Source of the DNA: Thermoplasmata archaeon
GTDB taxonomy: Archaea > Thermoplasmatota > Thermoplasmata > Lutacidiplasmatales > UBA184
Assembly: GCA_021802125.1 (NCBI GenBank)
Contig: JAKAAX010000006.1
Span: 7,633-71,632, forward strand
Direction: 5' to 3'
Length of the DNA: 64,000 nt
The notes beneath the pieces are model-generated. The model saw nothing but the letters and a program-made list of their open reading frames with translations. It was not told the DNA's origin and searched no databases. This document shows positions 20,758 to 25,752 of this stretch, in pieces (the first letter of the stretch is position 1; every line of letters starts with the position of its first letter). A program made the translations under genes and the position numbers.

Positions 20758-21225
20758 TCAGGCACGCGTGTGGGTCAGGACCGTCCGGTCCTTCAGCCGC
20801 TGCTGACAGTAGCTGTACAGCGCGTCGTAGGCGGGGAACTGCAGTCGCATGTTCTCGTGGTCATCCTTCGCGACGGCCCGGAAGCCCATCGCGAGCGCCT
20901 CCAGTCCCGCGGACTCCGCCCGAGGGTGGGCGAGGTTCGCGTCCGCGCCGCGGACGATCTCGGCGAGGTCGAGAAGCGCCGGGTCGGTCAGCTTGTACTT
21001 GCGGATGACCGCGTCGAAGCTCACCCGCTCCTCCCCCCTCTCCTCGTAGTGGAAGATCTCCGCGCCGGGCGTGTCGAAGGGGATCGCCCCGTCCTTCTTC
21101 GCGACCTCCAGGACCTTCTCCTTGGGGACGAAGAGGAACTCGGCCTCCTTGTCCACGAATCGCTTGATCACCCAGGGGCACGCGATGCGGTCGACCTTCG
21201 CCTTCTCTCGGGTCACGAACTTCAT
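20758..21225 (-). CDS. ChrB C-terminal domain (chromate-resistance-associated) protein
   Basis: VTREKAKVDRIACPWVIKRFVDKEAEFLFVP...IPFDTPGAEIFH matches the stand-alone ChrB_C family pattern as I recall it. Confidence 0.7.
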   Translation of the reverse strand: MKFVTREKAKVDRIACPWVIKRFVDKEAEFLFVPKEKVLEVAKKDGAIPFDTPGAEIFHYEERGEERVSFDAVIRKYKLTDPALLDLAEIVRGADANLAHPRAESAGLEALAMGFRAVAKDDHENMRLQFPAYDALYSYCQQRLKDRTVLTHTRA

Positions 21226-23278: not shown

Positions 23279-24274
23279 TCACCCGGTGGACGTGCAGCAG
23301 GTCTCGTCGGAGGCGTGCCTCCGCGAGGGGTCGTGCGCCTCGACCTCGAAGACGGCGTGGACGATCCCGAAGTCGTCCGCCAGCCGCTCTCTCAGCTGCG
23401 CGATCACCCGCATGCTGTCCCGGACCGAGATGTCCGCCGTCCGGACGTGGGCCGTCATACAGACAAGGGAGGAGCAGACCGACCAGACGTGGACGTCGTG
23501 CAGGCCCTCGACGTTCGGAACGGACTTCGCCGTGCGGACGATGGCCTCCACCGAGAGGTCCTTCGGGACCTTCTCCGACAGCGTGGCCCAGGACTCCCGG
23601 AACAGGGGGATGGACTCCCAGATGAGGATCGCCGCCACGAACAGGGCGGCGGCGGGGTCCACCCAGGTGAGGGTGGGCCGGAGGAGGAGGACGACGCCGA
23701 CCGACAGGAGCGCGAGGGTGATCAGCACGTCGCTCAGCAGGTGGAGGAAGACGCTGCGGAGGTTGAGGTCGCGCGCTCGCCGGGGCGTGCGGCCGACGAG
23801 GACCGCCGAAGCGGAGCGGAACACGATCGTCGGCACGGCCGCGGCCACGAGCCAGAGCGGGTCCACGCTCCCGAGCGGGGGACGACCGGCCTCCAGGGCC
23901 GAGATCGAGGCGTAGGCGAAGCCCAGGCCGGTCGACAGGATGAGGCAGGCGTTCACGAGGGCGGCGAAGACCTCGGCCCGGTGGAGGCCGAAGGTGTGCT
24001 CGCTCGTCGCGCCCTTGCCGGCCAAGGACAGGGCCTCGAAGGAGACCGCGAAGGCGATCAGGTCCGGGATGTCGTGGACGGCGTCCGCGGTGAGCGAGAG
24101 GCTTCGGCTGAACCAGGCCCCCAGAGCCTCCACCAGGAGGATGATGACGGCGAAGAGAAGCGAGATCTTCAGACCACGAAGGACCGAAGCCTCGGCCTCG
24201 CCCTCCCCGTGGGGCTGCGCTCGGCCAGAAGGACGCACGGTGGCGGAGGTCGCCGTCGGGACGGACATGCCCAT
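23279..24274 (-). CDS. cation diffusion facilitator (CzcD/ZitB-type) metal efflux transporter
   Basis: SLSLTADAVHDIPD, HTFGLHRAEV, HLLSDVLI, and the C-terminal domain VHDVHVWSV..MTAHV are present. Confidence 0.9.
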   Translation of the reverse strand: MGMSVPTATSATVRPSGRAQPHGEGEAEASVLRGLKISLLFAVIILLVEALGAWFSRSLSLTADAVHDIPDLIAFAVSFEALSLAGKGATSEHTFGLHRAEVFAALVNACLILSTGLGFAYASISALEAGRPPLGSVDPLWLVAAAVPTIVFRSASAVLVGRTPRRARDLNLRSVFLHLLSDVLITLALLSVGVVLLLRPTLTWVDPAAALFVAAILIWESIPLFRESWATLSEKVPKDLSVEAIVRTAKSVPNVEGLHDVHVWSVCSSLVCMTAHVRTADISVRDSMRVIAQLRERLADDFGIVHAVFEVEAHDPSRRHASDETCCTSTG

Positions 24275-24278
24275 GAGG

Positions 24279-24542
24279 TCAGAGCGCGCTGGCCACGACC
24301 TCCCGCAGCTCTTCGACCGCCTGTCCGGTCGAGCTCCTTTCGGGGACGGTGCGCAGGCACTCCGCGACCAGCTCGTCCACGATGGCTTGGAGGGCGGCGT
24401 CGAGCGAGGACCGGACGGCCGAGATCTGGTGCACGATGTCGGGGTAGCTTCGCCCCTCGTGGGTCATGGTGTGCACCGCGTGCAGGTGCCCCTCGATCCG
24501 CGCGAGCCGTGCCTCGATGGCGTGCCTTCCGCTTGGCACCAT
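24279..24542 (-). CDS. CsoR/RcnR-family (DUF156) metal-sensing transcriptional repressor, non-canonical ligand set
   Basis: 87 aa. RLARIEGHL....DIVHQISAVRSSL is colinear with CsoR. It ends 4 nt upstream of the CDF start. Confidence 0.85.
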   Translation of the reverse strand: MVPSGRHAIEARLARIEGHLHAVHTMTHEGRSYPDIVHQISAVRSSLDAALQAIVDELVAECLRTVPERSSTGQAVEELREVVASAL

Positions 24543-24559
24543 ATCCCCTCGGGGGGGAT
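24543..24559. promoter_or_regulatory. putative repressor operator A (ATCCCC-N5-GGGGAT palindrome) abutting the csoR-like start codon
   Basis: The plus strand reads ATCCCCTCGGGGGGGAT. It has the same half-sites as operator B and covers the expected transcription start. Confidence 0.5.
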
Positions 24560-24576
24560 GCTAGGCCGGCTCTACC

Positions 24577-24582
24577 TATAAA
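24577..24582 (-). promoter_or_regulatory. TATA box (TTTATA on the minus strand) of the csoR-like/CDF operon
   Basis: A perfect archaeal TATA hexamer lies 35-40 nt upstream of ATG 24542, between the two palindromes. Confidence 0.6.
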
Positions 24583-24586
24583 TCGT

Positions 24587-24609
24587 CCTATCCCCCCCTG
24601 GGGGATAGG
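24587..24609. promoter_or_regulatory. putative repressor operator B (CCTATCCCCC-N3-GGGGGATAGG perfect inverted repeat)
   Basis: A perfect 10-bp inverted repeat lies directly upstream of the TATA box. Its C-tract/G-tract architecture resembles known CsoR boxes. Confidence 0.55.
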
Positions 24610-24651: not shown

Positions 24652-25752
24652 TCACTCTTCCTGCCATCGGAAGGCACGGATCGCGGCGAGGAAGAGGAGG
24701 ACCGCGAGCCCGACCACGACGAGCAGGTCCGTCAGCGCTCCCGTGGTGTTCTGGAACACCATCGTGTTGTTGAGCCCGTCGATGACGTAGTAGAGCGGAA
24801 GGACGTGGGCCACGGCCTGGAGATAATCGGGGAAGAGGGAGACCGGGAAGAATGTCCCGGAGAGGAACATCATCGGGAACGTCACGAGGTTGCCCACGAC
24901 CGAGGCGCTCTCGGGGGTCTTCGAGAAGGTGCCCAGGAGAAGGCCCAACGAAACGAAGAGCATGGGCCCGAAGATGAGGAAGGGGATGGTCAGGAGCGTC
25001 GGGGTCGCCGTCGCCCCGAAGAGCCCTCGTCCCACCGCCAGCATGACGACCGTGGACGCGAAGACCAGCACCAGATACCAAAGGACGGAGGCGGCGAGCC
25101 ACTCCCCGCGCGTGAGCGGGGTCAAGGACAGCTGGCGGAACAGTTTCTGTTTCTTGTACTGGGCGGCGATGTTCGTCATCGAGAACATCGGGCTCGTCAG
25201 GATCGAGAAACCGATGAGCCCGGGGACGAGGTAGTCGATGTACTGGTACGTCGTGCTCCCGACGTTGAGCTCCATCGTCCCCACCACGGGGGCTTGCCCC
25301 GACTGGGCGTAGTTCATCGACGTCACGGCGTACCCGACCGCGCCCTGGACGATCCCGGCCGTCGAGGGCTGGGCCGGGTCGGTGTAGACAATGACCTTGA
25401 CCGGACGGTGGGCCGCGAAGGAGGCCTGGAAGCCTGCCGGCAGGACGATCCCTGCGGTGTACCCCTTCGAGACCAACCACGTGGAGAGGTTGCCGACGGA
25501 GGAGGAGACCATGTGGACCGAGACCGCGCCCGTCGCGTTCAGGCTGGTGAGGAACATCTGGCTCGCCACCGAGGTCCCGTCCAAGTTCTGGACATAGACG
25601 GGGGACGAGCTCGAACCGGTGTTCGAGAAGATGGAGCCGAAAAGGAGGATCAGGATGATCGGGAAGATGAGCGAGAAGAAGAGCCCGACGCGGCTCCTCA
25701 GGTAGGTCCGGGCGAAGACCAGGAGGTAGGCCGCCACCCTCGAGGGCCTCAT
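24652..25752 (-). CDS. ABC-2 type transporter permease (copy 1)
   Basis: Six to seven TM helices. It is colinear with copy 2 at 30867..32087 (FSLIFPIILILLFGSIF, EYKKxKLF, LSLTPLTRGEWL, VTFPMMFLSGTFFPV, LPLYYVIDG). ATG 25752 overlaps the ATPase stop. Confidence 0.85.
   Translation of the reverse strand: MRPSRVAAYLLVFARTYLRSRVGLFFSLIFPIILILLFGSIFSNTGSSSSPVYVQNLDGTSVASQMFLTSLNATGAVSVHMVSSSVGNLSTWLVSKGYTAGIVLPAGFQASFAAHRPVKVIVYTDPAQPSTAGIVQGAVGYAVTSMNYAQSGQAPVVGTMELNVGSTTYQYIDYLVPGLIGFSILTSPMFSMTNIAAQYKKQKLFRQLSLTPLTRGEWLAASVLWYLVLVFASTVVMLAVGRGLFGATATPTLLTIPFLIFGPMLFVSLGLLLGTFSKTPESASVVGNLVTFPMMFLSGTFFPVSLFPDYLQAVAHVLPLYYVIDGLNNTMVFQNTTGALTDLLVVVGLAVLLFLAAIRAFRWQEE

Follow-up and report, generated by a model that had tools for sequence, protein, structure and literature searches.

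A CsoR/RcnR-family regulator and its CDF exporter in Thermoplasmata, with a predicted non-canonical sensor site

For nearly twenty years, the inducer specificity of CsoR/RcnR-family repressors has been explained by a W-X-Y-Z ligand code, in which X is Cys in every described member that we found. In Rhizobium leguminosarum, Agrobacterium tumefaciens, and Sinorhizobium meliloti, the family member DmeR is encoded ahead of the cation diffusion facilitator (CDF) exporter DmeF in an autoregulated operon that is released by metal (PMC7055735), and the pairing of such a regulator with a CDF is thus already known in bacteria. Here, we analyze a 64,000-nucleotide stretch of DNA (contig JAKAAX010000006.1, positions 7,633 to 71,632; hereafter the window) from an uncultured soil Thermoplasmata archaeon whose genome assembly spans 2.63 Mb at 69% G+C and is 89.9% complete. 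On its minus strand, an 87-residue regulator with an ATG start (24279-24542) precedes a 331-residue CDF exporter in the same orientation (23279-24274). As in DmeRF, the CsoR/RcnR-family repressor gene comes first and the CDF second in one apparent operon; the archaeal host, with its promoter of TATA box and TFB recognition element (BRE), sets the two apart. Judged from sequence, this is a real, conserved repressor-exporter module of known type with a sensor site unlike every described pattern. We consider it fairly probable that the two genes form an autoregulated divalent-metal efflux switch whose His-rich sensor site has been relocated.

Several described systems frame this comparison. InrS of Synechocystis (PDB 5FMN), which belongs with the NcrB/NreA-type His-Cys-His-Cys nickel sensors, is the closest solved relative of the regulator in sequence (E 1.1e-11) and in fold. 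The gene under InrS control is nrsD (PMC4235346); the regulator in the window is partnered by a CDF instead. The Cu(I) sensors CsoR of M. tuberculosis and S. lividans share with the regulator a three-helix protomer, an RLXR motif, and a conserved Gln, but here the partner is a CDF rather than a CopA/CopZ system. E. coli RcnR, a repressor of divalent-metal efflux from the same family, has the role predicted for the regulator. RcnR uses an N-terminal His ligand and tandem promoter operators (TACT-G6-N-AGTA, twice); tandem candidate sites also occur in the promoter described here, although those of RcnR are type-1 sites with a single G tract and its ligands are His3-Cys35-His60-His64. The E64H variant of Salmonella FrmR is reported to show that the scaffold can be made responsive to Zn(II) or Co(II) in cells (PMC5016687). 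That variant is engineered and retains the classical Cys35/His60 site, whereas the regulator in the window is natural and lacks those residues.

Family membership and ligand positions of the regulator

The regulator scores 64.8 bits on Pfam family PF02583 (Trns_repr_metal, DUF156), where the cut-off is 22.8, and the match spans profile positions 4-77 of 78. An AlphaFold2 monomer model generated with 33 homologues (mean pLDDT, the predicted local distance difference test, 91.2) contains helices at residues 4-28, 33-65, and 71-86, the three-helix protomer of about 90 residues that typifies the superfamily. In a Foldseek search of the Protein Data Bank, the top 20 hits are all CsoR-family structures (InrS, CstR, CsoR, and FrmR), the best being InrS with a template modeling score of 0.73. 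In S. lividans CsoR, the RLXR motif of helix 1 and a conserved Gln of helix 2 are needed for operator binding (PMC3902906). The equivalent DNA-reading residues R12, L13, A14, and R15 (RLAR) and Q39 are invariant in the 33 homologues and in a larger set of 67. By Pfam match, predicted fold, and DNA-reading motifs, the regulator is a true CsoR/RcnR-family protein, as an original prediction made from the DNA letters had proposed.

The larger set comprises 67 unique orthologues with identities of 51-99% (median 68%). A search of 5.8 billion clustered proteins had yielded 65 relatives, nearly all of 87 residues, and the few with a named source are labeled Thermoplasmata archaeon; 80 loci were found by scanning species-representative genomes. 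Across the 67 orthologues, 18 of the 87 columns are invariant: His7, Glu10, Arg12, Leu13, Ala14, Arg15, Gly18, His19, His21, His24, Met26, His28, Tyr33, His38, Gln39, Ala42, Arg44, and Leu79. The cluster of histidines that the original prediction noticed in the first helices is therefore fixed, its six members being as invariant as RLXR and the Gln of helix 2. Positions 56 and 57 mostly hold acidic residues. The residues in which the sensor region departs from the family are under strong purifying selection.

We assigned ligand positions X, Y, and Z by HMMER alignment to the solved InrS, CsoR, and CstR, which is ungapped over residues 10-83. Position X, which is Cys53 in InrS and Cys36 in M. 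tuberculosis CsoR, is Tyr33 here; position Y (His78 and His61, respectively) is Leu58; and position Z (Cys82 and Cys65) is Cys62. The Cys36/His61/Cys65 trigonal Cu(I) site of CsoR is thus absent, and the first two replacements agree with those read earlier from the letters. The same reading took Cys62 for a retained ligand. This part did not stand, as the column holds C (44), F (12), A (5), G (5), or I (1) in the 67 orthologues, and the idea that Cys62 survives as a ligand was rejected.

None of the described fingerprints fits this arrangement. Tyr33, Leu58, and the variable Cys62 depart from the x-C-H-C pattern of Cu(I)-sensing CsoR. Tyr at X and Leu at Y likewise depart from the H-C-H-H pattern of RcnR and DmeR, the latter a Ni/Co sensor with His-Cys-His-His where the regulator has Tyr, Leu, and a variable residue at X, Y, and Z, and from the H-C-H-C pattern of InrS and NcrB. 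Lacking Cys at X and having Val as residue 2, the regulator matches neither CstR (x-C-x-C) nor FrmR (P-C-H-x). The NCBIfam RcnR and FrmR models score 21 bits each on it, against cut-offs of 138 and 133 bits. We also sought a realignment that would restore canonical Cys/His ligands. The sequence contains one Cys in total and its last His is residue 38, so that none of the described fingerprints can be recovered by aligning it differently, and this option was ruled out. By this ligand test, the regulator falls outside every described subfamily (CsoR, RcnR/DmeR, InrS/NcrB, CstR, and FrmR), and the replacement at X and Y extends to its whole clade.

That clade emerges from a midpoint-rooted tree of this short protein, built from 212 non-redundant relatives aligned to the family profile and including the nearest 150 of the 50%-identity cluster representatives of 1.8 billion proteins. 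A single 92-tip clade (SH-like support 0.997) holds all proteins with Tyr at X and Leu, Val, or Ile at Y except P0170, and 90 of its 92 tips show the Tyr/Leu pattern. Cys-His-Cys proteins, among them the InrS-like ones of cyanobacteria, form its sister group. Within the clade, proteins with His7, His21, His24, His28, and His38 are monophyletic without exception (26 tips, support 0.89). Their nearest relatives carry Thr7, His21, His24, Asp or Glu28, and Arg38, and the bathyarchaeal and thaumarchaeal members carry Pro7, Lys or Arg21, and Asp28, with His at residues 3-4 (MTHHK, MSNHKRP). This topology suggests that the Cys/His ligands were lost first and that the His cluster was then assembled stepwise in one Thermoplasmata lineage.

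A literature search found no paper characterizing an archaeal or Tyr/Leu member of the CsoR family, and in a 2021 network analysis of the superfamily, clusters 6-9 (9.5% of sequences) are described as uncharacterized. The regulator gene is accessory. Among 300 sampled genomes of the class, it was found (E<=1e-12) in 7 of the 37 that belong to its own family and not in any of the more than 30 other families covered. The source genome itself contains a single PF02583 gene in a genome-wide search, with 63.8 bits at the position of the regulator. One metagenome-assembled genome (MAG), YP4.bin112, has two regulator-CDF operons on different contigs (L007 and L013) with clearly different regulator sequences. 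In another, JOPF105 (L014 and L023), the second copy is identical over the 52 residues recovered before the contig end, and may reflect duplication in the assembly instead of a true paralogue.

The exporter partner and what it implies for the signal

The regulator stop lies 4 nt from the CDF open reading frame (ORF), the spacing first noted from the sequence and borne out by the ORF coordinates. Partnership with the exporter is not peculiar to the window, as a CDF lies directly downstream on the same strand in all 21 Thermoplasmata loci. In two of these (L004 and L014), our extraction picked the wrong frame, and tblastn shows that the CDF is present; among the correctly extracted loci, gaps range from 4 to 34 nt. 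This is the layout of DmeRF, with the regulator directly before the CDF, and co-transcription of the two genes is probable.

The exporter matches Pfam Cation_efflux (127.9 bits) and ZT_dimer (PF16916, 40.6 bits). Its predicted transport site combines a His-x3-Asp motif in transmembrane segment TM2 (VHDIPD) with another in TM5 (LHLLSD), and there is no His-rich loop. These HD-HD residues align to the transport site of ZnT8 and are kept in the correctly extracted orthologous CDFs; among solved structures, ZnT8, ZnT1, and ZnT3 match best (E down to 7.5e-24). ZitB is the top-scoring specific NCBIfam model, behind only the general model of the CDF superfamily. In this respect the protein differs from the CDF of DmeRF, being nearer to ZitB/ZnT than to DmeF (108 versus 45 bits, both under the cut-offs of the models). 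The HD-HD site and ZT_dimer domain are those of the ZitB/CzcD/ZnT group of zinc-type CDFs, although the protein does not reach the ZitB equivalog level. At the level of family, Zn(II) is the most likely substrate, and Co(II) and Cd(II) are possible.

The source genome encodes three CDF proteins in a genome-wide search. At the N-terminus of the CDF (24170-24274 in the window), orthologues begin with a conserved His/Glu motif, M-P-x-x-x-H-G-E-G-E-A, and the window protein has an additional 17-residue extension. Its C-terminal tail (...DETCCTSTG) is common only to its closest relative. Two kilobases downstream of the CDF, the minus strand encodes a stand-alone ChrB C-terminal-domain protein (20758-21225; PF09828, 148 bits), with no obvious chromate transporter adjoining.

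Outside Thermoplasmata, Tyr/Leu regulators also adjoin exporters. At two loci, L022 (a Bathyarchaeota MAG) and L025, a P-type ATPase lies downstream, and several thaumarchaeal loci (L071, L029, and L027) have a CDF in this position, with unrelated genes in others. The two ATPases (L022:3470-5131 and L025:3246-5132) lack the usual CPC/SPC transmembrane motif and any N-terminal metal-binding domain, and contain VVAGACGVAAGTPLAI about 45 residues ahead of DKTGT. From these features, they may represent an unusual P1B subgroup. Three Bathyarchaeia loci (L039, L057, and L080) encode canonical His-Cys-His-Cys regulators ahead of CPC-motif P-type ATPases of about 615 residues, also without an N-terminal metal-binding domain.

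This linkage bears on whether the regulator senses metal at all. It might instead repress constitutively or respond to another cue, such as acidification, an organic ligand, or a partner protein. Such a function would be consistent with the absence of any described fingerprint and with the precedent of FrmR and CstR, which are non-metal sensors of the same family. Moreover, a cluster of six histidines would titrate near neutral pH, and related genomes come from acidic peat and soil, going by their sequence records. However, a metal exporter adjoins the regulator in 21 of 21 loci, and two exporter families do so in other phyla. The known non-metal members also rely on Cys chemistry, and the sole Cys here is not conserved. 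We think it quite improbable that the regulator is not a metal sensor.

Candidate operators in the regulator promoter

Read along the minus strand, the region ahead of the regulator consists of a distal palindrome, CCTATCCCCC-AGG-GGGGGATAGG (24587-24609), the tetranucleotide ACGA, a TTTATA box (24577-24582; -40 to -35 relative to the ATG), 17 nt, and a proximal palindrome, ATCCCC-CCCGA-GGGGAT (24543-24559), that abuts the ATG. The core of the distal palindrome (24590-24606) is the same ATCCCC-N5-GGGGAT motif that the proximal one matches perfectly, and both are candidate operators. Their centers are 47 bp apart, and the distal one stops 5 nt short of the TATA box on its upstream side, where it covers the BRE position. 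Farther upstream, an ABC-2 permease gene on the minus strand ends at 24652, leaving a 109-nt spacer before the regulator ORF. The regulator, CDF, TATA box, and palindromes all lie where the original prediction had placed them.

The occurrence of the motif here exceeds chance. A scan of the window allowing one mismatch gave 7 matches against 0.49 expected, of which only these two are perfect, and the 2.63-Mb genome contains exactly two perfect copies, both in this promoter (zero for a reversed control). Further operator sites, which had been suggested as worth a search, did not materialize. The 24 other one-mismatch matches in the genome are no commoner than control palindromes (12-20), and a larger regulon was set aside as an explanation. 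Three sites with other spacings occur in the genome, one of them inside a long ORF (C10:7003). At the sequence level, the locus thus displays a G/C-tract pseudo-palindrome in the regulator's own promoter, which is a hallmark of the superfamily. The layout is that of type-2 operators in the family, with two G/C tracts and AT-rich inverted repeats outside, although the outer AT repeats are spaced 13 bp apart, where 11 bp is typical.

We aligned the promoters of 20 Thermoplasmata loci, anchored on the ATG. Mean identity is 47% from -70 to -41 and 51% from -40 to -27, and rises to 84% from -26 to -1 (consensus tATCCCaTCCCCCCCGAGGGGAT, then AT) before falling to 70% over the first 33 coding bases. 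The proximal palindrome, conserved in almost all 20 promoters, thus has the character of a phylogenetic footprint, better conserved than coding sequence. A TATA-like element (cTtAt) occupies -40 to -35. In archaea, the TATA box is usually centered about 26 nt upstream of the transcription start. With this spacing, the start would lie near 24552, inside the proximal palindrome, and the leader would be about 10 nt long.

Lying 1-8 nt ahead of the ATG, the G-tract half of the proximal palindrome (GAGGGGAT, window 24536-24552) is similar to a Shine-Dalgarno sequence. Most loci also keep the CCCGA spacer of the palindrome, a hint that a second constraint acts here. An Rfam search for riboswitches and further RNA elements ahead of the CDF gave no match in the region at E<=1, and in a promoter and terminator scan the intergenic stretch showed neither a bacterial-type promoter nor an intrinsic terminator.

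Operators of this kind are not confined to Thermoplasmata. Sites of the ATCCCC..GGGGAT type directly precede the ATG in L022, L039, and L057 and are degenerate in L025 and L080. In L039 and L057 the sequence is TATCCCTTCCCCCTACAGGGGATAT, which abuts the ATG and belongs to the same operator family as that of the window. Like sites therefore occur before both Tyr/Leu regulators and their archaeal Cys-His-Cys relatives, which suggests that DNA recognition was kept while the sensor residues changed. Thaumarchaeal loci (L026-L078; for example, L034, L036, L042, L043, and L071) encode Tyr/Leu homologues that start MTHHKLPEV and have an AT-rich palindrome, TTGGAT(A/G)AAC(C/T)ATCCAA, directly upstream of a TAGATAAATA TATA-like box. 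In Nitrosocosmicus-type loci, TATCCTATCCCCCAGTATAGGATA takes the place of this palindrome.

The original prediction treated the two palindromes as a pair of operators. Both are real and the proximal one is kept in orthologues, but the distal one recurs in only 4 of the 20 promoters, as a C4-N0-5-G4 element at -62 to -59 (background 0.02 per 75 nt) in L001 (the twin of the window), L004, L010, and L019. The distal palindrome is therefore facultative. Its position, 43-65 nt past the permease stop, raises the alternative that it is a transcript-end hairpin or insulator of the upstream ABC-2 operon rather than a second operator. The predicted RNA hairpin is stable (-19.3 kcal/mol, z = -2.75), and, among the loci with a readable upstream gene, the same permease precedes the regulator in L001 and L004, both with a strong G/C palindrome. 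The 16 other promoters lack the distal palindrome. Moreover, perfect palindromes with 10-bp arms are fairly common, with 85 in the 2.63-Mb genome, and it is therefore the shared motif and not the hairpin that carries significance. That motif argues against the hairpin alternative, as the core of the palindrome is the exact operator sequence found only twice in the genome, and a CCCCGAGGGG element occupies the same -60 position in L010 and L019. In addition, no T-run follows the palindrome, the terminator scan was negative, and tandem sites are known in the CsoR family (PMC3902906). That the distal palindrome is mainly a transcript-end element and not a second operator appears unlikely to us; the terminator or insulator and operator roles are not mutually exclusive.

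A candidate His-rich sensor site

Family membership, the His cluster, the CDF linkage, and the proximal footprint all support the autoregulated metal-efflux architecture first proposed for this locus. The steps that we infer, from repression and responsiveness to metal through the metal, its ligands, and the start of transcription, are as follows. Without metal, a repressor in the dimer-of-dimers tetramer form of the superfamily would occupy ATCCCC-N5-GGGGAT through a surface comprising RLAR and Gln39. Bound at the proximal site, between the TATA box and the ATG and over the start, it would block polymerase recruitment, a mode common to many archaeal repressors. At the distal copy, upstream of the TATA box and over the BRE, it would also hinder binding of TATA-binding protein (TBP) and transcription factor B (TFB). 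Rising cytoplasmic divalent metal would then bind a non-canonical His-rich site and lower the affinity for DNA, after which the regulator and the ZnT/ZitB-like CDF would be transcribed and the metal exported. The sensed metal is probably zinc, cobalt, or nickel. As the effector, Zn(II) seems most likely, and Co(II), Ni(II), and Cd(II) are possible.

We propose that the sensor, no longer built on the Cys/His ligands of helix 2, comprises His7 and Glu10 from the beginning of helix 1 together with His24 and His28 at the end of helix 1 and His38 in helix 2 of the partner protomer, with Tyr33 as a possible further contributor. The site would stay at the end of the four-helix bundle where the classical one lies, but move to the helix1-helix1' interface beside RLAR, on the proposed DNA-contacting face. 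Such sites would form at both ends of the bundle and number one for each protomer. This geometry draws on CstR. In SpCstR, an interprotomer E14-R18' ion pair spans the helix1-helix1' interface, and an R28-D32 pair surrounds the X-position Cys30 (PMC8643695). In the HMMER alignment, these correspond to Glu17-His21', Arg31-Asp35, and Tyr33 of the regulator. Because E14-R18' aligns to Glu17-His21', helix 1 and helix 1' would run antiparallel in the register i+j=38. In this register, Glu10 is opposite His28', Ala14 is opposite His24', and His7 borders the helix1'-helix2' loop; the two arms of one hairpin carry His28 and His38 on either side of this loop. The specific ligand set His7/Glu10 with His24'/His28'/His38' is a product of this geometry, and we hold it with less confidence than the switch as a whole.

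The distribution of residues across the clade would also be compatible with a different location. A sensor shared by the entire clade might remain at the classical position, centered on Tyr33 and completed by an N-terminal His and the Asp/Glu residues at 56-57 of helix 2. An oxygen-rich site of this sort would favor harder ions, for instance Fe(II) or Mn(II). The His cluster of Thermoplasmata would be a lineage-specific addition, serving either to adjust affinity or to hold a second metal with no regulatory role. Tyr33 is present in 90 of the 92 clade tips, whereas His21, His24, His28, and His38 are not kept in this way. Members outside the five-His subclade keep His at residues 3-4, like the W ligand of RcnR and InrS, and are still linked to CDFs and P-type ATPases, and the acidic character of positions 56-57 would supply the remaining oxygen ligands. 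However, six histidines and Glu10 are invariant in 67 orthologues of 68% median identity, a conservation as strict as that of the DNA-reading motif, and the HD-HD site of the partner CDF is of zinc type, not Mn/Fe type. We regard a Tyr33-centered sensor as rather unlikely.

Several observations weigh against the proposed switch, its relocated His-rich site, and its assignment to zinc. The proposed interprotomer site rests on a helical register taken from CstR, as our own model is of a monomer. Elsewhere in the Tyr/Leu clade, regulators are exporter-linked yet lack most of the His cluster, and the histidines may tune specificity rather than form the sensor. The gain of His7, Glu10, His28, and His38 is one phylogenetic event, so that their co-occurrence is weak evidence of contact, and for this reason we dropped residue co-variation as proof of contact. 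The CDF scores far under the ZitB equivalog cut-off (108 versus 408 bits), making its metal a family-level guess. Finally, the distribution of the regulator is patchy (7 of 37 own-family genomes and none in the more than 30 other families).

A stronger claim, which we offer tentatively and with more doubt than conviction, is that this is the first natural zinc- or otherwise divalent-metal-responsive CsoR member with its site moved to helix1-helix1'. On that reading, metal would control DNA binding by a short, near-direct route, as opposed to the long-range allostery of CsoR, RcnR, and InrS, and the regulator would represent an uncharacterized archaeal clade found in Thermoplasmata, Bathyarchaeia, and ammonia-oxidizing Thaumarchaeota. 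The Tyr/Leu clade departs from the code that has accounted for inducer specificity in this family. Its members lie next to exporters and keep the DNA-reading surface and the operator type without the code's ligands, and in one subclade six histidines and a glutamate have become fixed in their place. Should these His and Glu residues form the sensor, the small CsoR scaffold would be able to re-site its metal pocket, widening the inducer range of the family, probably to zinc. The 87-residue regulator would then offer a tractable model for archaea, in which few metal sensors have been characterized. The clade also includes regulators of ammonia-oxidizing archaea, where metal homeostasis is of ecological interest.

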